64,000 nt of DNA from a bacterium (GTDB taxonomy: Archaea > Thermoplasmatota > E2 > JACPAO01 > JAHFTW01), in the NCBI GenBank assembly GCA_040390065.1, contig JAZJZE010000009.1:506930-570929 (forward strand), given 5' to 3'. A program made the position numbers and the translations under genes. The notes below the pieces were generated by a model that was given only the letters and a program-made list of their open reading frames with translations, was not told where the DNA came from and did not search any database. Position 1 is the stretch's first letter. Every line of letters starts with the position of its first letter. Below are positions 5,760-63,108 of this stretch, piece by piece.

Positions 5760-6245
5760 ATGGGCCCGAACCAGGCCACTGTTCGCCGGGCCAGCATCCT
5801 GGCTTGGGTTGAGGCCAATCCGGGCCAAGGCTTCCGCGCCCTTTCACGAGGAACCTGCATCCCGACCGGGACGCTGGCGCACCATCTTGGCATCCTGAAG
5901 CGACGTGGCCTCGTGGCGGACAGGGCGCTTGGCCCTCGCCGCTTGTTCTACCCCACCGACGCCATCGTGGACGACCCCGCCAAGGCGGCGATGAACCTTC
6001 ACCCCGGCTTGGCCGCCCTTTACGCGTTCGTGCAGGCCAACGGTCCCTGCATGCAGAACGTCGTTCTTGCCGCCTTCGAGGCGCAGGGTTGGCCGCGTTC
6101 CACGACGCAGCAGCGCCTCCGCCGCCTTGTGGCTGTCGGCGGCTTGCAGGCGGTGCGGGGCGTGCGGTCACTACGATACGCGGTCCAGGCACCCGCGGTG
6201 GCCCAGTTGCCTCTTGCCTCCCGCCTGCAGGTGGTGTTGGCATGA
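5760..6245 (+). CDS. Tandem winged-helix transcriptional regulator (COG3398-like)
   Basis: 'ILAWVEANPGQGFRALSRGTCIPTGTLAHHLGILKRRGLV' plus a second wHTH 'PRSTTQQRLRRLV'. Confidence 0.75.
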   Translation: MGPNQATVRRASILAWVEANPGQGFRALSRGTCIPTGTLAHHLGILKRRGLVADRALGPRRLFYPTDAIVDDPAKAAMNLHPGLAALYAFVQANGPCMQNVVLAAFEAQGWPRSTTQQRLRRLVAVGGLQAVRGVRSLRYAVQAPAVAQLPLASRLQVVLA

Positions 6246-6340
6246 CCACCAAGACAATCCAAGTCTGCTCCGTTTGCGGACGCGCCTGTCCCGGCGGCGA
6301 CTGCGCGCATCCGGCGTGTCCTTCGCAGCGGGTGTTCTAA
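6242..6340 (+). CDS. 32-aa Zn-finger microprotein
   Basis: MTTKTIQVCSVCGRACPGGDCAHPACP; ATGA overlap with the upstream gene and TAATG overlap with ardC. Confidence 0.55.
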   Translation: MTTKTIQVCSVCGRACPGGDCAHPACPSQRVF

Positions 6341-7257
6341 TGTCATCCGCGCGCCAGGCCGTGTACGCGAAGGTCACCGACGCCATCATGGGGAAGCTCC
6401 GCGAAGGCGTTGCGCCGTGGCACAAGCCCTGGAGCGATGCGGATCGGCCTCGCAACTTCGCCACCGGTCGAGCCTACTCCGGCATCAACGCATTCGCGCT
6501 CGGCTTGTTCGGGCCGACGCCGTATTGGCTGACCTTCAATCAGGCACGCCTGATGGATTGCCAGGTGCGCCAGGGGGCCAAGGGTGTGCCCATCCTGTTC
6601 TATGGTACGCAGACGCGGCAACGCTTGGTCAAAGGCAACAACGGGGCGGCCGTGGAGGATCATGAGGTTGGCTTCGTGCGGTACTTCCACGTCTTCAACG
6701 CCGTTGACGTGGACGGCATCGACGCCGCCAGACTCGGCCAATCGCCATCGCCCTTCGAGCCCATTGAGGTCGCTCAAGGGTTGCTTTCCGCCGTGCAGCC
6801 GACGCCGGAGATTAGGCATGGCGGCGACGTGGCTGCCTTCAACCCGGCCCGTGACGTGCTTCGGATGCCGCGGCCCGAGGACTTCGCTCGCAGCGTGGAC
6901 TACTACGCCATCCTCTTCCACGAACTGACCCACTGGACGGGCCACCAGTCGCGCCTCGACCGCGAGTCTTTGCGCGACGCGAAGAGCTTCGGGGACGAAT
7001 CGTACAGCCGCGAGGAACTGGTGGCCCAAATGGGCGCCGGCTTCCTATGCGCCTTGACGGGCATCCAAAACGACACCATCGAGCAGTCCGCAAGCTACCT
7101 CGACAATTGGCTCAAGCAACTCCAGAACGACCGCGGCCTACTCATCTCTGCCGCGAGCCAGGCGCAACGCGCCACCGACTACTTGACCCGCAGCTGGACC
7201 CAGCCCGCGGCAATCGGCGTGACCGACCAAGAAACGGAGGCCACAGCGGAATCGTGA
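6340..7257 (+). CDS. ardC: ArdC-family ssDNA-binding antirestriction protein (DUF1738 + zincin-like domain)
   Basis: 'GVAPWHKPW...PRNFATGRAYSGINA...YWLTFNQA...VRQGAKG', 'FHELTHWTGHQSRLDR', 'YSREELVAQMGA', 'SASYLDNWL'. Confidence 0.92.
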   Translation: MSSARQAVYAKVTDAIMGKLREGVAPWHKPWSDADRPRNFATGRAYSGINAFALGLFGPTPYWLTFNQARLMDCQVRQGAKGVPILFYGTQTRQRLVKGNNGAAVEDHEVGFVRYFHVFNAVDVDGIDAARLGQSPSPFEPIEVAQGLLSAVQPTPEIRHGGDVAAFNPARDVLRMPRPEDFARSVDYYAILFHELTHWTGHQSRLDRESLRDAKSFGDESYSREELVAQMGAGFLCALTGIQNDTIEQSASYLDNWLKQLQNDRGLLISAASQAQRATDYLTRSWTQPAAIGVTDQETEATAES

Positions 7258-7329
7258 AGCCTCCCCTTGAATCGTGAGCGCCATTGCGGCGACCTTTCCC
7301 CCTTCCCCAGCGAATGCCAGGTGAAACCC

Positions 7330-8706
7330 ATGAAGAAAATTGAAACTGAAGTGCCAGCCACGAGTGGCGAGAAGCTGCTCGTTCCCGTCAACCAAGTCCG
7401 CGAGTCCCCGGACAATGGCCGCATCAACTACGATGAAGCCGCCCTGAAGGACCTGATGCAATCCATCAAGTCCACGCGCCTGGAAGAAGACGTGGTAGTG
7501 CGACGCGTCGAAGCCGACGTGTACGAGGTCGTGGATGGGCACCGTCGATTCCGTGCTGTGCAGCGCCTCGGCTGGGACGCCGTGCCGGTCCTCGTCAAGC
7601 CCTTGACGGAGGAGGAGGCGCGGTTGTACCGTGTGGCGACGATCTTCCAACGCGCCAACGCAACGCCGTACGAGGAAGCACGCTACTTGGCCGCGGCTTT
7701 GAAGAATCCGGGCATGACGCGGCAACTCTTGTCGCAAACGTGCGGCATCAAGCCCGGCACCCTGCGAAACCGATTGGAACTCCTGGAGTTTCCGGAGCAG
7801 GTCGCCAAACGCGTCGGTGTCGATGGATTCGCGGCGGAGCACGCCCGCATCCTTGCCAGCCTTGCTGCCTACCCCGACGCCTTGGCAGTTGGCTTGAAGG
7901 TGGCGGAGGACAAGGACACTGAGGGTACGATGCGCTCCGCTCCCCGCTTCTTCGAGGACGTCAAGAAGGCGCTCGTCAAGGCCAACGCTGCCAGGGACCC
8001 CACGAGCAACCGCCTCTGGGAAGTGCGAAACGCCTTCCCGACTTTCGAGGGCCAAGCCGGCAAGTTGGCTTGCGTGAAACACAAGACCCAGTTCGGTGAA
8101 GCTGTCCTGGTCCTCGACGTTGCGGCCTTTGATGGACTCGTGGACAAGGCGAAGGCGACGTTGGAGCGCCGCAAGGAAAAGGACGCCAAGCCGAAGGAGG
8201 ATGCCGACGAGGCACGCCGGATTCGGCGCCGGGAGCGGCAACTCGAAGTCGAACACGCCGCCAACGAATGGAAACGGGATGCGCTGCGGGAGGCCGCCTT
8301 TTCGCGCCTCGGCAACATCAAGGAGGTTGAGGCCTCGGACTTGGCCAGCCCCCTTCTGGACGCCCTGGAAGTCGGCATCGACGAGAACGACATCGAGCCC
8401 CTGGCAGAGGCGGCGGGCGTCCCCGTGGAACGCCTGCGAGGCTTCCTTGCGTGGAACAATGAGGGCGAAGCCGCCAGCCAGGACCTCATACAGCACTCGA
8501 CGCCGATTGAGTTGCTGCGACTGGTGCTCGCCTTGAGCGTGGCTCGCAGCCTCGATGGCCAGTCCGGGACTTGGAGCACTCTGTGCGGGCACTGGACCGG
8601 CAAGACCATGGCGGCTTGGGACGACGCCGCCACGGAGGCGGCCCGCGGCATCGTCAAGGCCAAGGGCAAGCAGGGCGAAGCGGAGGAAGCCGAGGCAACC
8701 GCCTAG
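7330..8706 (+). CDS. ParB/RepB/Spo0J-family protein with a long C-terminal region
   Basis: 'LKDLMQSIKS...VVVRR...YEVVDGHRRFRAVQRLGWDAVPV', 'TPYEEARY' and an HTH; AGGTGA SD before ATG 7330. Confidence 0.88.
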   Translation: MKKIETEVPATSGEKLLVPVNQVRESPDNGRINYDEAALKDLMQSIKSTRLEEDVVVRRVEADVYEVVDGHRRFRAVQRLGWDAVPVLVKPLTEEEARLYRVATIFQRANATPYEEARYLAAALKNPGMTRQLLSQTCGIKPGTLRNRLELLEFPEQVAKRVGVDGFAAEHARILASLAAYPDALAVGLKVAEDKDTEGTMRSAPRFFEDVKKALVKANAARDPTSNRLWEVRNAFPTFEGQAGKLACVKHKTQFGEAVLVLDVAAFDGLVDKAKATLERRKEKDAKPKEDADEARRIRRRERQLEVEHAANEWKRDALREAAFSRLGNIKEVEASDLASPLLDALEVGIDENDIEPLAEAAGVPVERLRGFLAWNNEGEAASQDLIQHSTPIELLRLVLALSVARSLDGQSGTWSTLCGHWTGKTMAAWDDAATEAARGIVKAKGKQGEAEEAEATA

Positions 8707-10566: not shown

Positions 10567-10790
10567 GGAAGGCCGGCAGGGATTCCCCTGTAAAGCGTTT
10601 TCAGGTGACGCCTGCGGGATTCCAGAGGACAGAGCCAAGCCGTCCGACGCGTGGCGGCCACTGTGGGGGCCGCGGCTTCAACAGATGGGGCGGACGCTCC
10701 CCTGCCTGTCGAACGCCAACGACCGATTCCGCCCCTCCTGCGACGACGTCGACGCCCACAAAGGAATCGAAGGATTGGACCGCAGGCCAG

Positions 10791-10830
10791 GACGGCCGCG
10801 GACGGGCCTGGACGGCCATGGACGTCCGCG
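10791..10830. repeat. Four degenerate tandem 10-mers
   Basis: gacggccgcg / gacgggcctg / gacggccatg / gacgtccgcg, intergenic downstream of truD. Confidence 0.55.
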
Positions 10831-10893
10831 AGGGTTCCTCCAACTTTGCCAGAGGGAAGTGAACGTGGCGCCCGCGACACCCCCGACGGCCGG

Positions 10894-12180
10894 TCAGTAG
10901 TCGCCAATCGGGGCTTTCATGAATTCGCGCAGCACGACTGTTGCGTAGGACCCCTTGCCCAGAGCGAAGGCGAAGACCGGATCGCCGTCGACCCATGAGA
11001 CGGTGAGGTCGCGCACGGGTTGCAGGATGCCGCGGCGCCGTCCCTTGCTGGCCATTTCGGGGAGTTCGCGGACGCGGAAGTCTGCCGGGTGGACGCCTTC
11101 GTCGTCGAGGACGGCCTGCTCGACGTCGCCGGGGCGGCCTTGCGCCATCTCCACGGTGAGCCCGACGAGGGGCGCGGTGAGGGTTGCGCGTCCTTTGTCG
11201 AGTTCTCGTTGCACGCGCTCCAGGCTTGCCGCTGTGACGAGGTGGGTGTGGGTGCCGTCTTCGTCCACGCCCATGACGCGGTCGCCGACGTGGGCCCGTG
11301 CAACGCCGAGTCCGGCCTCGACGCGGGCGGAGAGGATGAGGTTGAACAGGTAGGACTGGTGGGCGTGGACGAAGAGTTGCAGCAGGTTCGGCGGCAATGC
11401 GCCGAGGGCGTTGCGCCAGTCGCCGGGTTTGCGAAGCAGCCGTTCGAGGATGGCCCGTTCGCCGTCGAGGTGGCGCGGATAGACGTCCAACGCGGCGCCT
11501 GGGTCGCGGGTCGTCTCGTAGACGGCGCGGGCGGCCAGTGCTTCTTCGCGTTCGCCGGCGACCGGATTACCGCAGTACAGGCGGACGGCTTCCTCGAGGT
11601 CGCCGTCGACGATGGCGCGGCCGACTAGGTGCGTGATGGCGCGCCAGGAGCCGCCGAAGCGCTGTGGCCCGAAGAAATTCGGCACTCCGCCCTCCGCGGC
11701 GATGGCCTTGGCCGCGGCGTCGACGGCGACGGTATCACGCGTCGAGTCGCGCACGCGGATGACGAAGCGGTTGCCCTCGTGGGCCCCGGCAAAGTGGGCC
11801 TTGCGCGTCGCGTACGTCTCCAGGACCTCGACGTCCGAGAGGGTGGAGAGTTTGCCCACGTCCGCGACGGGGGCCTTGAACGTGAACCACTGTTCCGTGA
11901 CGGCGCGCTTGTCCTTCATGCCGGCAAAGGCGACGTGCTCCCGGTAGATGCCAAGGCGCTTTGCGGCCTCGCCTGCGAAGCGGTTGGTTTCCCAGTTCTT
12001 CAGCCGGATGCGCGCGGCGGCATGGGCGCCCTCGGCAAACGGCTTGGGGCCCTCTCCGGTCTCGATGACGACGAAGTCCTCAGGCTCGCCGCGCAGCTTG
12101 CCGCCGATGCCGGCCGTCGCGGTGAGGTACGAGGCGAGGCCGAGCGCGCGCTCCTCGTCGGGTGGAACGGGTCGCGTCAA
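10894..12180 (-). CDS. truD: tRNA pseudouridine(13) synthase
   Basis: 'GIGGKLRGEPEDFVVIE', 'FAGMKDKRAVTEQW', 'GVPNFFGPQRFG', 'HAHQSYLFN', 'FALGKGSYATVVLRE'; start estimated (TTG). Confidence 0.95.
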   Translation of the reverse strand: MTRPVPPDEERALGLASYLTATAGIGGKLRGEPEDFVVIETGEGPKPFAEGAHAAARIRLKNWETNRFAGEAAKRLGIYREHVAFAGMKDKRAVTEQWFTFKAPVADVGKLSTLSDVEVLETYATRKAHFAGAHEGNRFVIRVRDSTRDTVAVDAAAKAIAAEGGVPNFFGPQRFGGSWRAITHLVGRAIVDGDLEEAVRLYCGNPVAGEREEALAARAVYETTRDPGAALDVYPRHLDGERAILERLLRKPGDWRNALGALPPNLLQLFVHAHQSYLFNLILSARVEAGLGVARAHVGDRVMGVDEDGTHTHLVTAASLERVQRELDKGRATLTAPLVGLTVEMAQGRPGDVEQAVLDDEGVHPADFRVRELPEMASKGRRRGILQPVRDLTVSWVDGDPVFAFALGKGSYATVVLREFMKAPIGDY

Positions 12181-12316
12181 CGAGGCGGCGAGGAGGCATC
12201 CCGTGAAAAGGTCAAGCGCGGGGGACTTGCGGGTGCGTCCAGCGGACCGGACGGCGGCATCGGTGGGCTTTCCGTCATGGCAAACGGCACCCGTCGCGCG
12301 CCTCAAGGCCAGGGGA

Positions 12317-12690
12317 CGGCCACGTCATCCTCCGACGGCGGCGCGGGCAACGAGGTGGCCGCGTGGCTGGGTGTGGGAGGCCATGGAGAACAGGAATCAA
12401 GTGGAGAGAAACGGAATGCGTTCTCGTTTTCCCGTGGTCTCCGGTTCTCCCAGGCCGTCTTTGCCTGAAAGGCCGCGAAGTCGCCGAAGAGTGGAAAGGT
12501 CGCTTTCCGCGTTTTTCGGTGGCTTCCAGCTCTTTCAGGCCCCCGGCGGCCCCAGCCATCGCTTCGCTCCGCTTGCCATGCCCTCGCACGCCCGCGCTGC
12601 GCCGCGGGCAGCTCGCCCCGACCGGGGGCTGCGTCGCCTCCCTGCCATTCCTTCAAGGCGTCGGCGCCGTCGGAGGAACGTGGGAATGGC
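12317..12690. repeat. Composite structured dispersed element, copy 1
   Basis: Module A hairpin 12317-12361, central hairpins 12379-12456 and 12463-12540, module C 12541-12690; A and C recur in the same order at 61542-61893. Confidence 0.85.
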
Positions 12691-12747
12691 GCGTCGGTCT
12701 TGACCCGCAGGTTGGCCGGTCTTCCGCGGCTTCCTGGATGTCCAGGC

Positions 12748-12911
12748 CTAGAGTCTGACGCAAAAGTAGCCTGTCCGCCGGGCAATCCGCAGCGTGCCGG
12801 CTGCTAGGAAGGGGCCCGCAGGCGTACTGGAGGTACGGCCAGGGCCCCTGACGACGCAGACGGTCGGCTCCGGGCAGCCCGGCGTCAGGGGACTTTTGCG
12901 TCAGACGTTAG
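12748..12911. mobile_element. MITE-like element (~160 bp)
   Basis: Perfect 15-bp terminal IR gtctgacgcaaaagt (12753-12767) / acttttgcgtcagac (12892-12906), extendable to 20 bp with 2 mismatches; internal aggggccc..cgtac/gtacg..gggcccct hairpin; no transposase ORF. Confidence 0.75.
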
Positions 12912-13195
12912 TTGCGCTTCTTCAACTCGGCTGCAAACGCGTGCTCGAGCGCGTCGAATTCGCCGATCAGGGACTTGATGGTGCGCTTGAGGACGACGTC
13001 CGGCTTGACCTTGCCTTTCGTGCGCACGAAGATCTTCGGCGTGGAGAGGCTCGGGTGTTCGATGATGTATTCGGCGAAGTCGACGTCCTTGTCCGCGAGC
13101 AGGGCCTGCTTGATGGGGTTGAGGAGCGTCTCGTTCTCGCCCACGACCTCGATCTCCAATTCGTTGGCGGTGCTGGAGATGACGGTGAGCTTCAT
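12908..13195 (-). CDS. rpoL: RNA polymerase subunit L (Rpo11)
   Basis: 'ELEIEVVGENETLLNPIKQALLADKDVDFAEYIIEHP'. Confidence 0.95.
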   Translation of the reverse strand: MKLTVISSTANELEIEVVGENETLLNPIKQALLADKDVDFAEYIIEHPSLSTPKIFVRTKGKVKPDVVLKRTIKSLIGEFDALEHAFAAELKKRN

Positions 13196-38724: not shown

Positions 38725-39801
38725 CTACGCCGGCTGGACGCCGTTCGTGGCCGGCGTAAAGGTCGTGCCGAAGAGCAGTGGGGAGGGGTAAGGATGCGCC
38801 GGCGCCGACCAGTCGTATTGGAAGGACCAGGGTCCAAATTGTCGAGAGAACTCCAGCTCGATGATGCCGGGCGGAGCGACGGTCTCCACGGTTCCATCCG
38901 GGCGGACATATCTTGCATGGCCGTCCGTGGCGTTTTCCAAGCCGGTTCCTTGCGGGCCCACCGAGGAAAACGGCAGGAAGCCAAGGACGAGGGTTTTCCC
39001 GTCAATTCCCAGCGAGCGGTCGAGTTGCACCATGGCGCTGGCCTGCACATCGTAGCCGGCCGATGCGGCGCCGACTTGAGCACCCTGCTGGGCATCGCTT
39101 CGTTTCGCAAGAAAGACTCCCTCCGCGTCGCCGTAAGAAACCGACAAGGCAGTGTTGTTCCAGTGGCCCTGCAGGGTTGGGGGGGCCGCAAGCTCCGTGG
39201 ACAGCAGCATGAAGATGTGCCCAAATGCGTCTGGGCCGCACATGCGTTGCGCCGCTTTCCATCCCTCGCGGGTTACGTCAACAACGAGGGATATCCTGCT
39301 TCCGTCGGTCCCCTGGAGGATGCCCATGTCAGGCCCGGGTCCTGTGGCGTTGGCTTGCTTGGCGCCTGCCCCGACCCAGACGGCGGTCATCGGTGGCGCT
39401 CCAGTCGTGAGCTCGGACATCATGCCCCAACAGTCGCGCCATTCCGCTCCTTGCAACCTGGGCCCGCCAAATCCCACCGTAAAAATCTGGTTGGTCGTGG
39501 ACTTCGGGGGCATCGTCCAATTGACCCACAACCGCAGGTCGCCATCCATATGGTCCCCTCCGGCGGGAAACGAAATGTCAATCCAAACCAATCCCGGAAC
39601 GGTTCGGCGCAGGGTTCCGCTGGTGGGAATGAGTTGCGGCGTATCGTGTCCCTGATTGGTCCCCGCGACCACTTGGGTTGCCGGCGCCCTGGAGGAGTCG
39701 GATTCTGGCGGGAGGCTCGCTTCATTGGTAGGCCGGTGGGCGCTGCAGCCTGCCAGCACGAAACCAAGGAAGAGGAGGGGGAGGAGCAGCCGGCCTAGCA
39801 T
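38725..39801 (-). CDS. Orphan lipoprotein
   Basis: MLGRLLLPLLFLGFVLAGC lipobox; start overlaps the upstream gene's stop. Confidence 0.7.
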   Translation of the reverse strand: MLGRLLLPLLFLGFVLAGCSAHRPTNEASLPPESDSSRAPATQVVAGTNQGHDTPQLIPTSGTLRRTVPGLVWIDISFPAGGDHMDGDLRLWVNWTMPPKSTTNQIFTVGFGGPRLQGAEWRDCWGMMSELTTGAPPMTAVWVGAGAKQANATGPGPDMGILQGTDGSRISLVVDVTREGWKAAQRMCGPDAFGHIFMLLSTELAAPPTLQGHWNNTALSVSYGDAEGVFLAKRSDAQQGAQVGAASAGYDVQASAMVQLDRSLGIDGKTLVLGFLPFSSVGPQGTGLENATDGHARYVRPDGTVETVAPPGIIELEFSRQFGPWSFQYDWSAPAHPYPSPLLFGTTFTPATNGVQPA

Positions 39802-40247
39802 GTTGCCGTGGCCGTCTGTTCGGCGCCGTCGGAGGGATCAACCACAAGGTGGAAGTGGCCGATGATTGAGGCATAGGCCGTAATGGACTCCCCCGTGTTC
39901 ATGAGGTGGCTTGCGGCGCCGTCCTGGTGCGTGCCAGGGTCGATTGCGCCCGGTACGTTGACGCCCGTTGTGTGGGTGTAGTATGAGACGCCGTATTCGT
40001 AGTCATAATCGGCGAGGGTCGACGAGCCACTGACGCTTGTGAACCACTCGGCGCTGCAACCGCTTCCGTAGGGGTGCAGGATGACCCAGGCAACGGCAGT
40101 GGTGGTGATGCACTGGGCAGGAGGAGTGCCGTAGAGAGTCTGGCAGATAGTGGCTGCGTCCGGCGTCCCGGACACCGGCAGCGCCGTCAATACGAGCATT
40201 CCCATTGCAATCAAGCCGAACATCCTGGGCATAGAGTTGTTGGTCAT
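39795..40247 (-). CDS. Small secreted Cys-containing protein
   Basis: Signal peptide 'MFGLIAMGMLVLTALPVSG'; 4 Cys including the C-terminal residue. Confidence 0.65.
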   Translation of the reverse strand: MTNNSMPRMFGLIAMGMLVLTALPVSGTPDAATICQTLYGTPPAQCITTTAVAWVILHPYGSGCSAEWFTSVSGSSTLADYDYEYGVSYYTHTTGVNVPGAIDPGTHQDGAASHLMNTGESITAYASIIGHFHLVVDPSDGAEQTATATC

Positions 40248-40291
40248 TGCGTTTGTCCTGACCCCACCGTGAGGCCAAACGCTGCCAAGGC

Positions 40292-40303
40292 GGGGGGGGG
40301 GGG
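40292..40303. repeat. G12 homopolymer in a divergent promoter region
   Basis: c-gggggggggggg-tatctat; the longest homopolymer noticed in the window. Confidence 0.8.
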
Positions 40304-40401
40304 TATCTATCTGCCGGCGAGATGACTGGAACGATTCCAACAGCAGGCCGCCTCCCGACCGATTCGAGAACGCTTATCCTCCGCCGCCCAGGTGGTCGCC
40401 T

Positions 40402-43474: not shown

Positions 43475-44271
43475 GGCACGAGTCCCCGCAGGGCCGCCGA
43501 AACTTGGCCGTACTCCCACGGCGACACCTGGGTTGCGGTCCGAGCCCCGACTTGCAGCTGCTCCTGCACTTGCGTGATGGCTGCGGACGGCAACCCGAGG
43601 TCGCCGGCAAGGGGAGCAAGGCTGTGCCGCAGCGTCCGCTTGCGCGCCGACCAGGCCGCATCGAGGACGACATCGAGCAACGCGAAATCCACGGTCGGGT
43701 CTGGCGCCTTCGGCACGACGGCGACGACATGCGATGCCACGTCGGGCGGCGGATGGAAGTCGTGCCGGCGAAGAGGGAACAGCGCCTTCGACTTGGCCCG
43801 CAACGCCATCTGCACGGTGAGTTTGCCATAGGCCTCGTCGCCTGGCTTCGCGGTCAAGCGCTCGGCGAGTTCGCGGGGCATGACCAGCACGGCGCGGCCG
43901 AAACCGTGCTCCAGCAGGCGCGCAAGAAGACCCGGAATGATGCGGTAGGGCGGATTTGCCACCACGGCGTCGATGCGCGCCGGCAGCCGGACCTTGAGGG
44001 CGTCACCGGTCGTCACGGTCAGACCCGGAAGGGCGAGTGCCTCGAGGGACTGCGCCAGGGCCGGCGCCTTCTCCACGGCGACGACCGACCCGCCTGGAGC
44101 GACGCCCGTGCACAGCAGGCGCGTGATGGCGCCGGCGCCGGCCCCCACGTCGAGGACGTGCTCACCGGGCCGCAGCGCAGCGGCCTCGACGATGCGCGCC
44201 ACCGCCGACCCGGCCGGGTCGAGGAAGTGGGCGCCGCGACTGCGCCGGTCGGGGTCGGTGCGCTTCGCCAC
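43471..44271 (-). CDS. rsmA: rRNA adenine dimethyltransferase (RsmA/KsgA-like)
   Basis: 'GAHFL', 'VLDVGAGAGAIT', 'GDAL', 'VVANPPYRI', 'YGKLTV', 'FHPPPDVAS'. Confidence 0.8.
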   Translation of the reverse strand: MAKRTDPDRRSRGAHFLDPAGSAVARIVEAAALRPGEHVLDVGAGAGAITRLLCTGVAPGGSVVAVEKAPALAQSLEALALPGLTVTTGDALKVRLPARIDAVVANPPYRIIPGLLARLLEHGFGRAVLVMPRELAERLTAKPGDEAYGKLTVQMALRAKSKALFPLRRHDFHPPPDVASHVVAVVPKAPDPTVDFALLDVVLDAAWSARKRTLRHSLAPLAGDLGLPSAAITQVQEQLQVGARTATQVSPWEYGQVSAALRGLVP

Positions 44272-44323
44272 GCCGCGGGCAGGCAACCCAAGACCTAAAC
44301 CCCCTCCCCGTAGTGGCGCAAGC

Positions 44324-46033
44324 GTGGCCCCGGCCGAGGAGCATGACCCGCTGCAACTGGCGATGCTGCTGGCCGACGCCGCGACGGTGGCGTGGCGTCG
44401 CATCGCGGACAACAGCGACCGGCACGACAAGGTCGGCCTCGGCGCCGGGGGCAACCTCACGTCGAAGGCCGACTTGGAACTCGAGACCGCGATTCTTGCC
44501 AAGGCGGCTGAACTGGGCCTGACCGTGCTGTCGGAGGAGGTGGGCCTGGTCGACAAAGGCTCGCGCCTCATCGCCGTCGTCGACCCTCTCGACGGCTCCC
44601 GCAACGCCGGCCGCGGCATCCCGTTCCATTGCACGAGCATCGCCATCGGCGACAAGGGCGGCGCCCTCTCGACGCTGCATGCCGGCGTGGTTCGCAACCT
44701 CGTGACGGGGGACACGTACACGGCCGTGCGCGGCAACGGGGCATGGTGCAACGGTAAGCCCGTCAAGCCGTCGCCGTTCCACGCTGATGAAGTCATGGTT
44801 GGCATCATCGCCGACTACTCGGACACCGAGATTGCCGAAGCGCACGCCAACCGCAACCACCACATCCGCGACCTCGGCTCTGCGGCGCTGGAGATGTGCC
44901 TCGTGGGGACCGGCGCGATGGATGCCTTCATCGTGCGCAAGCCGTGGCTGCGCGTCGTCGACATCGCCGCCGCGACCTTGTTCGTGCGCGAAGCGGGCGG
45001 TTCCGTCCATGATCCACTCACCGGTCGCGACCTGGAGGTGCCCTTCGACATGTCGGCCCGCTGCGCCGTGCGCGCCGCCCACAGCGCCGAGGCACGCCAG
45101 GCCGTCTCGGGAATGCGCTTGCCCGTGCGCACACCGTCCGGACGCATGACGGGGCCACTCTTGCGCGGCGAGGCCAGCCTCGACGAGCCCGGGGCAATGC
45201 CGCTTGTGTGGGCCCTGGTCGGCAAGGCCGGGATTCCCCACATCCGCAAGGAGGCAACCTGGGTGCGCGACCACCTGCGGCAACGCGGCCAGACCGTCCT
45301 CGTCGAGCACGACCTCGCGGCAGCCTTCGGCGACAAGCCGCACACCTTCGAGGAGCTCGACCGCCTCGCGGACATCTTTCTCACCGTGGGGGGCGACGGC
45401 ACCATCCTTCTCGCGCTGTCGCACACGGACAAGCCCATCTTCGGCGTCAATGCAGGCGCCATCGGTTTCCTGTCCGAACTCGAGCCGCCGCAAGCCGCGC
45501 AAGGCATCGACCAGGTCATCCGCGGCGACTACCGCATCGAGGAACGCGACAAGCTGTCCGCCTGGCTCGACGAGACACGGCTGCCCGACGCCACGAACGA
45601 GGTGACGCTGCAGACGAGCCGCATCGCCAAACTCATCCGCTTCCAGATCACGGTGTCGGGGGAAATGCTCGACACGCTGCGCGGCGACGGCATCATCGTG
45701 TCCACGGCGACCGGCTCGACGGGCTACGCCATGTCCGTCGGTGGGCCCCTCGTGCATCCACTCGTGCACGGCACCGTACTCGCCCCGATTGCGCCCTTTC
45801 GCCTCTCCGCTCGGCCCTGGGTCGTCCCCGCCGACGCCGTCGTCGAGGTCACCCTGCTCGACCGTGACTCCGCCCAAGGCGAGCAGCAGGCGCGCGTCGT
45901 CGTCGACGGCCAGCACGGCTTCGACATCGCGCCCGGCGCCAAGGTCCGCATCGCGCCCTCGCCGCGCAAGGCTCGCTTCATCCGGCTCGGCTCCGGCTTC
46001 TACGAACGTGTGCGTACCAAGTTGACGAGGTAA
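44324..46033 (+). CDS. Bifunctional NADP phosphatase (IMPase fold) / NAD kinase
   Basis: IMPase motifs 'LSEE', 'VDPLDGS', 'GSAAL', 'DIAAA'; NAD kinase motifs 'GGDGTIL', 'NE', 'GDGIIVSTATGSTGYAMSVGGP'. Confidence 0.92.
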   Translation: MAPAEEHDPLQLAMLLADAATVAWRRIADNSDRHDKVGLGAGGNLTSKADLELETAILAKAAELGLTVLSEEVGLVDKGSRLIAVVDPLDGSRNAGRGIPFHCTSIAIGDKGGALSTLHAGVVRNLVTGDTYTAVRGNGAWCNGKPVKPSPFHADEVMVGIIADYSDTEIAEAHANRNHHIRDLGSAALEMCLVGTGAMDAFIVRKPWLRVVDIAAATLFVREAGGSVHDPLTGRDLEVPFDMSARCAVRAAHSAEARQAVSGMRLPVRTPSGRMTGPLLRGEASLDEPGAMPLVWALVGKAGIPHIRKEATWVRDHLRQRGQTVLVEHDLAAAFGDKPHTFEELDRLADIFLTVGGDGTILLALSHTDKPIFGVNAGAIGFLSELEPPQAAQGIDQVIRGDYRIEERDKLSAWLDETRLPDATNEVTLQTSRIAKLIRFQITVSGEMLDTLRGDGIIVSTATGSTGYAMSVGGPLVHPLVHGTVLAPIAPFRLSARPWVVPADAVVEVTLLDRDSAQGEQQARVVVDGQHGFDIAPGAKVRIAPSPRKARFIRLGSGFYERVRTKLTR

Positions 46034-52014: not shown

Positions 52015-52450
52015 CTATACGTCGCTTGCGGCCGCGGCAGGCATGGCCGGCGCCGTCGCGGCGGTGGCGGGCACCACGGACAGGCCGTCGCCATCCTCGA
52101 CGCGCACCAGTCCGCTTTGCTCCGGCCGCCGGACGTGGTAATGCGCAGCGCCGTACGTGAGGCCGACCCGGGCTGCGATTTCGCCGAGCCTTGCGCCTCG
52201 AGGCCGTTTCATAACTGCCAGGGTGCCTGCGTCATTTTCCGGCCTTCGCAATCCCGTTGCGGGCGGCCGCCGGCGGGCCGGCAGCCCGCCAAGGCCGCCC
52301 GCGACGGGAGTGTGTGGCCGGAAAATGACCCGGAGGGCGCGCCGCTTTACGGCGGATGGCGTCGTCGGAATTGCCTCGGCGTGGCGGTGCCACGTGGTCG
52401 GCAACTCCTCCTAGCCCTCCTTGCAAACCGGCGCGCGCAGGCTTCCTGGA
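52015..52450 (-). pseudogene. Degraded winged-helix regulator remnant
   Basis: 'GARLGEIAARVGLTYGAAHYHVRRPEQSGLV' HTH fragment with a helix-breaking Pro and no coherent upstream frame. Confidence 0.4.
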
Positions 52451-59807: not shown

Positions 59808-59822
59808 TCTTGCGTCCAACGG

Positions 59823-59986
59823 TGTCCAGGTTTGGCCCTTAGCGCAAGCTCGGCCAGCATTGGAATCCACAGAATCCTGCGTCGAAGCGCTGTCAAGGTT
59901 TGGCCCCCGCGCCGAGCTCGCCCAGCATTGGAATCCACCGAATCCACAGAAAGTAGCGGGCGGTTTCGGTGGATTCAGTGGATTCC
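59823..59986. repeat. Degenerate 55-bp tandem duplication (period 68) ending in a 9-nt-periodic hairpin
   Basis: tgtc.aggtttggccc...ccagcattggaatccac.gaatcc at 59823 and 59891; IR ggaatccaccgaatccacagaaa / tttcggtggattcagtggattcc (21/23 paired). Confidence 0.8.
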
Positions 59987-61335: not shown

Positions 61336-61512
61336 ATGACGAACGCCCTCATGCGGTATTGCGGCACCTGCTCCGAGTACACGCTGAAGGAGGCCTGCCC
61401 GCGCTGCGGCGGCAAGACGGCGCAGAAGACGCCGGCCAAGTTCAGTCCCGAGGACCATTACGGCGAGTACCGACGCAAGCTCAAGAAATTGGATGCGTCC
61501 GAGAAGGCGTAG
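61336..61512 (+). CDS. nop10: H/ACA RNP protein Nop10
   Basis: 'C..C.EYTLKEACPRCGG.T...PAKFSPEDHYGEYRR'. Confidence 0.95.
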   Translation: MTNALMRYCGTCSEYTLKEACPRCGGKTAQKTPAKFSPEDHYGEYRRKLKKLDASEKA

Positions 61513-61541
61513 GGCATCGGTCCATCGAAACCAACCAACTT

Positions 61542-61893
61542 GCGGCCACGTCAACCTCCGACGGCGGCGACGCGCACGAGGTGGCCGCTTGCTTGAGTTT
61601 GGGCGGCCTGGAAAAACAGTGAACCCCATGAAACGGCAGGCGACAGGACATCGGTTTCCCTGGGTTCGGGTGGTGCACTATTTTCCGCGGCCTCCCACAC
61701 TCAGCGACGCCCCGCAAGCAAGATGAATCCCAGCCCCCCCGGCGGCCCCCGCGCGCTCGCTACGCATCGCGCACTGGCCTCGCCCTCGCACGCCCGCGCT
61801 GCGCTGCGGGCTGCTCGCCCCGACCGGGGGCCCGCTTCGCCTTTCCTCCATTCCCTCAAGGCGTCGGCGCCGTCGGAGGACGACGGGAATGGC
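61542..61893. repeat. Composite structured dispersed element, copy 2
   Basis: Module A 61542-61588, central hairpin ~61610-61686, module C 61737-61893; homologous to 12317-12690. Confidence 0.85.
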
Positions 61894-61914
61894 TCGGTGG
61901 CTTGGACAAGCAGG

Positions 61915-61943
61915 AATCAGTCCAATCCGTGCAATCCGTGGTT
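61915..61943. repeat. 9-nt-periodic half-site
   Basis: aatcagtcc-aatccgtgc-aatccgtgg-tt, 14 nt from the desaturase stop. Confidence 0.65.
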
Positions 61944-61957
61944 CGCGTGGGCGACGG

Positions 61958-62908
61958 CTAGTGCGCCATGCGTGCCAACTTTTCCGCCTTCGTTGGCTGG
62001 TGCACGTGCGTGATGAGGTGCGTCCATGCGAGGAGCCGCACGAGCCATGCGCCGGTGTCGACTTGCCACCATTTCATGCCGATGTAGGCGGCGTTGGGGA
62101 AGGCGTGGTGGTTGTTGTGCCAGCCTTCGCCCCAGCCGAAGATGGCGACGATGGGGTTGTTGGCGCCGCGGTCGTTCGTCTTGAACGGGCGGCGGCCCGA
62201 CATGTGGCCGATGGAGTTGACGCTCCACGTCGTGTGGTGCATGAGGCCGACGCGGATGAGGCCGCCCCAGACGAAGCAGTCGAAGGCGCCGGCAAGCGTT
62301 CCGTAGGCGAGGTAGCCGATGATGGCGGGCAGCACAAGAGAGAATGTGGTCCAGAAGACCCAGGTACGTGTGAAGAACGCGACCACCTTGTCCTGCATGA
62401 GCTTCTCGTAGGCGAGTCCGCCGTAGACCATGCGGTCCTTGAGCATCCATCCCATGTGTGCGTGCCAGAAGCCTTCCAGTGGGCTGTGGGGGTCGCCGGG
62501 CCGGTCGGCCTTGGCGTGGTGGCGCAGGTGCGTTGCCGCCCAACCGGCTGGCGGGCCTTCGAGGGCCATCGTGCCGGCCATGAGGAGTCCGATCTTCGCG
62601 GGGGTCTTGGCGGTAAAGGCGCGGTGGGTGAGCATGCGGTGGAAGCCGACGCTGACGCCGAGGCCGGTCAGGAGCCAGCCGCCGATGAGGAGGCCAATCT
62701 CGAGCCAGCCGACGCCATGGCCCCAGAGGCGCCACCCGGCGTAGCCGAGGGCCAGCAGGGGGAGGAAGACGATGACCAGGATGAGGAGCTTGCCCCACCA
62801 CGGGTCGTGGCCGAAGGGGAACGGGTCCTGGCCCTTGTGTTCGCCTTCGTGGGCCGTCTGGTCCCACTCCTGTTGTTCGGGGTCTTGGGCGTGCGCTTGG
62901 TTCGACAT
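61958..62908 (-). CDS. Acyl-CoA (delta-9/Ole1-like) fatty acid desaturase
   Basis: Three His boxes 'GFHRMLTHRAF', 'HLRHH..AD..GDPHSP', 'GEGWHNNHHAFP'; GGAGG SD favours ATG 62908. Confidence 0.93.
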   Translation of the reverse strand: MSNQAHAQDPEQQEWDQTAHEGEHKGQDPFPFGHDPWWGKLLILVIVFLPLLALGYAGWRLWGHGVGWLEIGLLIGGWLLTGLGVSVGFHRMLTHRAFTAKTPAKIGLLMAGTMALEGPPAGWAATHLRHHAKADRPGDPHSPLEGFWHAHMGWMLKDRMVYGGLAYEKLMQDKVVAFFTRTWVFWTTFSLVLPAIIGYLAYGTLAGAFDCFVWGGLIRVGLMHHTTWSVNSIGHMSGRRPFKTNDRGANNPIVAIFGWGEGWHNNHHAFPNAAYIGMKWWQVDTGAWLVRLLAWTHLITHVHQPTKAEKLARMAH

Positions 62909-63108
62909 GGGCATCCCTCCTGAGAGTCATCCGGAGGGCTGCTAACCGGGCGGACGCTGCTTCCAGATTGAAACCTATGTTCGCTGTGGAAGTGGTTAAG
63001 GCCGGAGGTTAGGGGAACGGCTGCTGGTATCCTGCGCGACACCAAGGAGGTCTCCCGGCCGAGAAGAAACGAATGTGGAACGAGGGGAAGAGGAAGCGTT
63101 GGAGGTTC

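Follow-up and report, generated by a model that had tools for sequence, protein, structure and literature searches.

Retron RNAs carry complementary repeats, a1 and a2, at their ends, and the BOX elements of Streptococcus pneumoniae, which follow the boxA-boxB-boxC naming, likewise have ends that pair. Prokaryotic MITEs are described in one account as elements of up to ~400 bp in which inverted repeats surround a transposase-less core and which form long RNA stem-loops (PMC3184786). According to the same account, BOX elements are non-autonomous; they are transcribed and are believed to depend on mobilisation in trans (PMC3184786). In addition, among the REP-type palindromic repeats there is a CGTC-tagged class (PMC3733652). 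For Thermoplasmatota, our search of the literature found no description of a repeat like the one analysed here, which does not prove absence.

We analysed a 64-kb stretch of DNA (64,000 nt; hereafter, the window), which is archaeal chromosome DNA of 66.6% GC and contains a non-coding repeat family composed of modules. Two full copies, copy 1 and copy 2, have a 5' module A and a 3' module C, each bearing one arm of an inverted repeat, on either side of a middle that differs between them, and a third member, D, is a solo module C. Tentatively, and with confidence that stays below even, we read this repeat as a modular, MITE/BOX-like dispersed non-coding family of an uncultured high-GC Thermoplasmata/Thermoplasmatota archaeon.

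Like MITEs, the repeat is smaller than ~400 bp, non-coding and intergenic, has inverted repeats near its ends, occurs in either orientation as diverged copies and would form a stem-loop in a transcript. It differs from MITEs in that no target-site duplication is visible, in that the inverted repeats are subterminal and each sit inside a stem-loop of their own, and in that one member consists of the 3' module only; furthermore, no insertion sequence sharing the arms is known as a possible parent, and none of the 58 scanned ORFs of the window has a transposase or integrase domain. The likeness to BOX lies in the modular build, the conserved and pairable end modules and the variable middle, whereas the sequences are unrelated, the host is an archaeon and the middle is an unrelated hairpin in each subfamily rather than a variable count of one unit. 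Modules A and C are also not always linked as in BOX: two members have both and D has C only. REP and REPIN sequences resemble the repeat in being GC-rich, intergenic, repeated hairpins, and the arms of the repeat begin with or contain CGTC; however, REPs are palindromes of 20-40 bp with small loops, whereas the repeat has stems of 7-8 bp and loops of ~30 nt in a unit of ~370-400 bp, and no RAYT-type gene was found among the 58 scanned ORFs of the window. Finally, retron ncRNAs, IS110 bridge RNAs and TnpB-IscB omega RNAs also combine a conserved scaffold with a variable part, and the complementary ends recall retron a1/a2. Unlike in those systems, no copy has a gene for a reverse transcriptase, recombinase, TnpB or IscB next to it, no Rfam family matches, and the variable part is common to two members and matches nothing searched.

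Results

Genomic setting of copy 2

The genes of the window include L44e, S27e, eIF2-alpha, Nop10, PCNA, both primase subunits, a GINS subunit, TFS, aIF5A, RpoL and TruD, and the closest named relatives of TruD are 'Thermoplasmata archaeon' and 'Thermoplasmatota archaeon' proteins (83-70% identity). Copy 2 occupies positions 61543-61914 on the plus strand, its bounds being those of the similarity to copy 1 (blastn of the window against itself and alignment of the copies). Pfam domains and coordinates bear out the sequence-only reading, which had placed it between convergent nop10 and desaturase genes. Upstream lies nop10 (61336-61512, plus strand; Pfam Nop10p, 1.5e-22), which closes the gene run L44e-S27e-(opposite-strand ORF)-eIF2alpha-nop10, and from the other side a fatty-acid desaturase gene (61958-62914, minus strand; Pfam FA_desaturase, 3.3e-20) converges on the copy.

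Module A of copy 2 (61542-61588, plus strand) is closed by an 8-bp stem, GCGGCCAC / GTGGCCGC (61542-61549 / 61581-61588), around a 31-nt loop with the 5' arm of the inverted repeat (61549-61573), and is 91% identical to positions 12317-12362 of copy 1. The 5' part of the middle (61616-61735, plus strand) forms, together with flanking bases, a hairpin at 61605-61692 with T4 on the plus and T5 on the minus strand. Module C (61736-61914, plus strand) comprises two GC-rich hairpins, a CCATTCC/GGAATGG hairpin (61848-61892) and a conserved 3' tail with a GCAGG end. The 3' arm (61861-61885, plus strand) lies inside the loop of the CCATTCC/GGAATGG stem (61848-61854 / 61886-61892), and both arms of copy 2 lie, as had been proposed, in loops, each of them closed by a local stem of 7-8 bp.

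Other features of the window deserve mention in their own right. Positions 59811-59985, 3' of the S27e gene, contain two tandem 68-nt units (84% identical), then 9-nt GAATCCACA repeats with an inverted counterpart. At 52222-52338, upstream of the start of a minus-strand ORF, there is a near-perfect palindrome of 101 nt (81%, blastn; MFE -95 kcal/mol, z-score -10.3) with feet CATTTTCCGGCC / GGCCGGAAAATG. A single ORF at 43973-46033 fuses an inositol-monophosphatase-family domain to NAD kinase domains. Near the left end of the window, adjacent genes at 6067-8706 encode ArdC-N and zincin-like metallopeptidase domains and ParB-N and HTH_ParB domains; ArdC-N/metallopeptidase and ParB-type genes are common on plasmids and integrated elements, and this region may be a mobile-element remnant.

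Two full copies share their ends

Copy 1 (12317-12711, plus strand), recovered by blastn, alignment and a list of helices, is 395 bp long and copy 2 is 372 bp long; the two lie 49 kb apart. Its neighbours are truD (10894-12180, minus strand) on one side and, on the other, a long hairpin and rpoL (12908-13195, minus strand). Two blocks of similarity connect the copies: a 5' module of ~75 nt (61543-61615 versus 12317-12390; 84% identity, E 1e-12) and a 3' module of ~180 nt (61736-61914 versus 12540-12711; 79%, E 5e-36), the last ~100 nt of which (99 nt in copy 2) are 90% identical. The conserved modules are accordingly wider than the sequence-only reading had assumed. Sequence-based models of the two modules, R1 and R2, run unfiltered over the whole window, gave high scores to copy 2 (113.3 bits with R1, 79.1 bits with R2) and copy 1 (111.1 and 76.8 bits) and to no other site.

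Between these blocks, the middles are unlike, in agreement with the earlier observation: 61616-61735 and 12391-12539 align with a local score of 17, which was reached by 102 of 500 dinucleotide shuffles. The proposed picture of a conserved scaffold with a variable insert holds as far as the shared ends and the unrelated middles of the two copies are concerned, but the middle is not a free insert, as a middle of the copy 1 type also occurs in a further member, P0001 (see below). Because P0001 has this type of middle, the middle appears to be subfamily-specific and not guide-like. The suggestion that the middles might be guide-like or captured likewise found no backing in the searches: blastn detected no match to them elsewhere in the window, and both whole copies, middles included, gave no match in the phage set with blastn in 'distant' mode. 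In the plasmid set, the same mode returned a single match, of 45 nt at 86.7% to the 5' part of copy 1; it falls in a Paracoccus calcium-binding protein gene, and we take it for chance.

Within the middle of copy 1, positions 12463-12540 form a copy-specific 78-nt hairpin that is perfect on the plus strand with four G.U pairs (-50.1 kcal/mol) and weaker on the minus strand (-38.6 kcal/mol); this part of the middle is also conserved in P0001. The rpoL stop codon is followed immediately by a very stable 157-nt near-palindrome (12745-12912; MFE -102.8 kcal/mol, z-score -8.9) that is unrelated in sequence to the repeat. Its feet, GCAAAAGT / ACTTTTGC, give T4 on both strands, and it may be a bidirectional terminator-like hairpin or some other palindromic element.

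Additional members and the linkage of modules A and C

In the whole-window model search, R1 gave one outlier at 10725-10814 on the minus strand (19.6 bits). The corresponding member, D (10701-10831, minus strand; R1 19.6-20.8 bits), aligns locally with scores of 69 and 64, which none of 500 shuffles reached, and we regard it, on these alignments, as a genuine module C, though a degenerate one, with the 3' tail included. D lies between truD and a DUF4332 gene and is inverted with respect to copy 1, so that the two flank truD (10894-12180). Besides the tail, it retains a perfect 7-bp stem round the arm (10724-10730 / 10763-10769), the 5' strand of which differs from the aligned one. No module A was detectable beside D by local alignment (140 of 500 and 256 of 500 shuffles scored as well), and its fold z-score is -1.1.

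P0001 is a 183-aa NCBI hypothetical protein found by phmmer with a spurious minus-strand ORF across copy 1, to which it shows 64% identity over 81 residues spanning the middle of copy 1 and part of module C. Since P0001 matches copy 1 in two different frames (tblastn), the similarity is one of DNA, and the record is very likely a false gene call, a read-through of a non-coding repeat copy. It is not encoded in the window (best tblastn match, 64%) and very probably represents another copy, with a copy 1-type middle, elsewhere in the same genome and on the same 608,712-bp contig. An interpretation of P0001 as the syntenic orthologue upstream of truD was rejected, given that it very probably resides on the same contig as the window's own truD, and a weak C-terminal similarity was dismissed as arginine/proline-rich noise of the kind found throughout the window. 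In the protein record, no module A could be recognised in any frame.

The window thus holds three DNA members, one of them inverted, to which P0001 would add a fourth. As D has no recognisable module A and none was detected in P0001, the linkage of A and C that the sequence-only reading expected in other copies is not universal.

Complementarity between the ends

Checking letters and coordinates confirmed that 61555-61573 and 61861-61879 pair at 18 of 19 positions, with one G.G mismatch. A repeat search shows that these 19-mers are the core of a longer inverted-repeat pair, 61549-61573 and 61861-61885, whose arms of 25 nt are 88% complementary and separated by 287 nt. Scored without gaps, the strongest inverted repeat of 61500-61960 reaches 16, as did 7 of 300 dinucleotide shuffles, and that of 12270-12740 reaches 13, as did 44 of 300; in DNA as rich in GC as this, the complementarity of the ends is only modestly beyond chance. 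What lifts the A-C pairing above chance is its retention in the second, diverged copy and its status as the thermodynamically preferred fold in each: the A-C duplex of copy 2 has an energy of -47.0 kcal/mol, and a fold with both local hairpins is less stable than one with the long-range helix, by 15.1 kcal/mol for copy 2 and by 12.1 kcal/mol for copy 1.

Folding of the copies as a whole is less distinctive, with z-scores of -2.3 for copy 2 and -4.6 for copy 1 that are about equal on the opposite strand, versus -8.9 and -10.3 for the two unrelated hairpins of the window. The two-copy alignment contains no covariation in the A-C helix, since all 14 core pairs are identical between the copies. 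Pairs with both sides changed number 16 on the plus and 11 on the minus strand, counts that come from two full sequences only and mostly from their poorly aligned parts. Nor could a strand be assigned from counts of G.U versus A.C and consensus energies: the copies contradict each other, there is no consistent G.U / A.C asymmetry, and the consensus energies are -104.4 kcal/mol on the plus and -111.7 kcal/mol on the minus strand.

The arm motif CCTCCGACGGCGSCG occurs five times in the window versus 0.21 expected; four of these occurrences are accounted for by the arms of the homologous copies 1 and 2. The remaining one, an exact 15-nt match at 39821-39835, was considered as a trans target of the C loop and rejected, as it lies inside a coding ORF (39795-40340, minus strand), near the C-terminus, where it reads ..DPSDGAE..; we take it as chance and consider a trans pairing with the loop of module C improbable. 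This ORF ends just before a lipoprotein-like ORF (38725-39801). A 20-nt pattern of the C loop was found at no fewer than 119 loci in unrelated genomes, all titles among the matches listed being those of high-GC bacteria. When both copies were compared with those 119 loci by blastn, no similarity appeared outside the motif, and the bacterial matches are, on this comparison, best put down to chance.

Coding capacity, RNA families and mobile-element genes

The repeat is non-coding. A 1-nt, frameshifting indel separates copies 1 and 2, and the 96-aa ORF over module C (61723-62010) has no relative (41 candidates, none of which scored). A small conserved ORF after GGAGG-N9-ATG in module C was rejected: in copy 1 it has 5 codons, in copy 2 it reads antisense across the desaturase gene, and in D the ATG is replaced by ATC.

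Rfam 15 gave no match in the whole window at the gathering threshold. At E values up to 10, the regions 61400-62000 and 12200-12900 yielded nine weak matches to eukaryotic or viral miRNA, snoRNA and lncRNA models, far below the gathering scores, and a scan for tRNA and tmRNA found none. Because nop10 and truD are neighbours of the repeat, we considered an H/ACA guide RNA. On reading the sequence, H/ACA and C/D box features are absent; in particular, neither strand has an ACA after the lower stem of module A or C, and the sole Rfam H/ACA match is to a trypanosomatid model (15.9 bits, E 3.2). There is no TATA-like box beside either full copy.

Traces of transposition were sought at several levels. 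Inspection revealed no direct repeat, and hence no target-site duplication, at 12317/12711, at 61543/61914 or at the ends of the inverted repeats. The latter are subterminal, as the similarity between the copies extends 6 nt past their 5' end and ~29 nt past their 3' end. A Pfam scan of 58 ORFs in the window brought up no domain of a transposase, integrase, reverse transcriptase, TnpB or recombinase. The possibility that the two copies are the attL and attR sites of an integrated element was rejected, with a 49-kb interval full of housekeeping genes between them.

Discussion

We tentatively favour the interpretation of the repeat as a MITE-like or BOX-like DNA element that is non-autonomous. 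Its constant part is module C, present in every member seen (~130-180 nt), with GC-rich hairpins, a 7-8 bp stem carrying a ~30-nt loop and a GCAGG-ended tail. Module A (~75 nt) is optional and has a stem-closed loop of its own, in which 15-25 nt of the C loop recur as their inverted complement, and the middle is a subfamily-specific hairpin. The arms in A and C would represent the subterminal inverted repeats, possibly sites for a recombinase or transposase. Such an element may have been copied into intergenic 'safe' sites in either orientation, after which its members would have decayed and swapped middles; in a read-through transcript, the A-C helix would close a long irregular hairpin.

This interpretation is favoured by the existence of several heterogeneous, dispersed members, one a solo module, and by their mixed orientation, with copy 1 running antisense to the genes on either side, D running in the sense of both its neighbours and copy 2 co-oriented with nop10. 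The inverted repeats near the ends and the equal folding on both strands suit a DNA palindrome better than a one-stranded RNA gene. The lack of a promoter and of a known family, together with positions in intergenic dead zones, points the same way, as does, as far as the account of them goes, the agreement with MITEs in size, inverted repeats, non-coding core and RNA hairpin (PMC3184786). Against it stand the subterminal position of the inverted repeats and the lack of a target-site duplication, the fact that no window ORF has a transposase or integrase domain, and a count of members, three in 64 kb, that is small for a 'dispersed family'. Each arm, furthermore, sits in its own perfect stem of 7-8 bp, kept even in D. 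A DDE-type MITE does not need arm-enclosing stems, which look more like a feature of RNA or single-stranded DNA. The better conservation of the ends than of the middle could equally reflect constraint on an RNA, and random insertion does not predict that two independent loci adjoin pseudouridylation genes (truD and nop10).

The same observations lend some weight to a different possibility, which we consider doubtful: the members could form a structured non-coding RNA family, as cis elements of 3' UTRs or as small-RNA genes in their own right. The C hairpin would then display a ~30-nt loop with GGAGG in it, module A, where present, would mask this loop by forming a long-range helix of 15-25 bp or by contact between the loops, and the middle would be peripheral. 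Consistent with this, the arms lie in loops with perfect 7-8 bp stems in both full copies and D keeps its perfect 7-bp stem, the ends are more conserved than the middle, and in the copy alignment three single changes stay paired as G.U on the plus strand (columns 314/321, the eighth pair of the CCATTCC stem, and the CCTC/CCTT partner of GAGG). RNAalifold predicts an outer helix with two double changes, at columns 10/414 and 14/410. In addition, copy 2 begins just past the stop codon of nop10 and D just past that of truD, each in the orientation of the gene it follows, and all three DNA copies adjoin pseudouridylation genes. However, the A-C helix itself lacks covariation, and with two sequences only, the 'compensatory' pairs of the flanks and the middle may be alignment artefacts. 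Neither consensus energy nor G.U counts prefer a strand, copy 1 is antisense to both neighbours and has no TATA-like promoter that we could see, and the fold z-scores (-2.3 and -4.6, and -1.1 for D) are weak compared with those of the unrelated window hairpins (-8.9 and -10.3). Module A is missing in D and undetected in P0001, and no Rfam family matches.

A more specific version of this possibility, which we consider distinctly improbable, takes the repeat for a new structured archaeal RNA family tied to the pseudouridylation machinery, in which the C loop would be a putative protein- or RNA-binding site and module A a built-in mask, together making a switchable regulatory or processing element. 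It draws on the one member in the position of a nop10 3' UTR and the two inverted members that flank truD.

It is also conceivable, though unlikely, that the copies are decaying, functionless relics of old duplications or of a dead mobile element, with the A-C pairing a leftover or a chance product of high GC. The inverted repeat that rises weakly above the shuffles (7/300 and 44/300), the 20-nt arm motif that arises by chance at 119 or more unrelated high-GC bacterial loci and once in a coding ORF of the window, and the heterogeneity and degeneracy of the members would all suit relics; ends that keep 84-90% identity while the middles are unalignable, and perfect local stems in all three DNA copies, would not. 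Least probable of all is a transcription-termination or 3'-end module in which the T-run hairpins of the middles stop or stabilise flanking transcripts and A and C are accessory. In its favour, the window is poor in runs of at least four T or A (27 T-runs and 31 A-runs over its 64 kb), of which four lie in or beside the middles (12427-12430, 12512-12516, 61681-61684 on the plus strand and 61612-61616 on the minus strand), copy 2 lies between convergent genes and a separate, very stable hairpin with T4 on both strands follows rpoL. Against it, the T-runs of copy 1 are both on the strand without a transcribed neighbour gene, the conserved parts are A and C rather than the T-run hairpins, and D has no T-run hairpin.

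Next to nothing has been charted of the repeat families and non-coding RNAs in uncultured Thermoplasmatota, and the models R1 and R2 define the present family well enough for a genome-wide census. If the RNA interpretation were true, a hairpin-displayed loop with an optional intramolecular mask beside truD and nop10 would constitute a new regulatory RNA architecture in archaea. If, as we tentatively prefer, the repeat is a mobile DNA element, it would be an ordinary addition, a new family of non-autonomous elements, and its recognition would help annotation, at least one copy being publicly called a hypothetical protein, as well as the tracing of genome rearrangement in this lineage.
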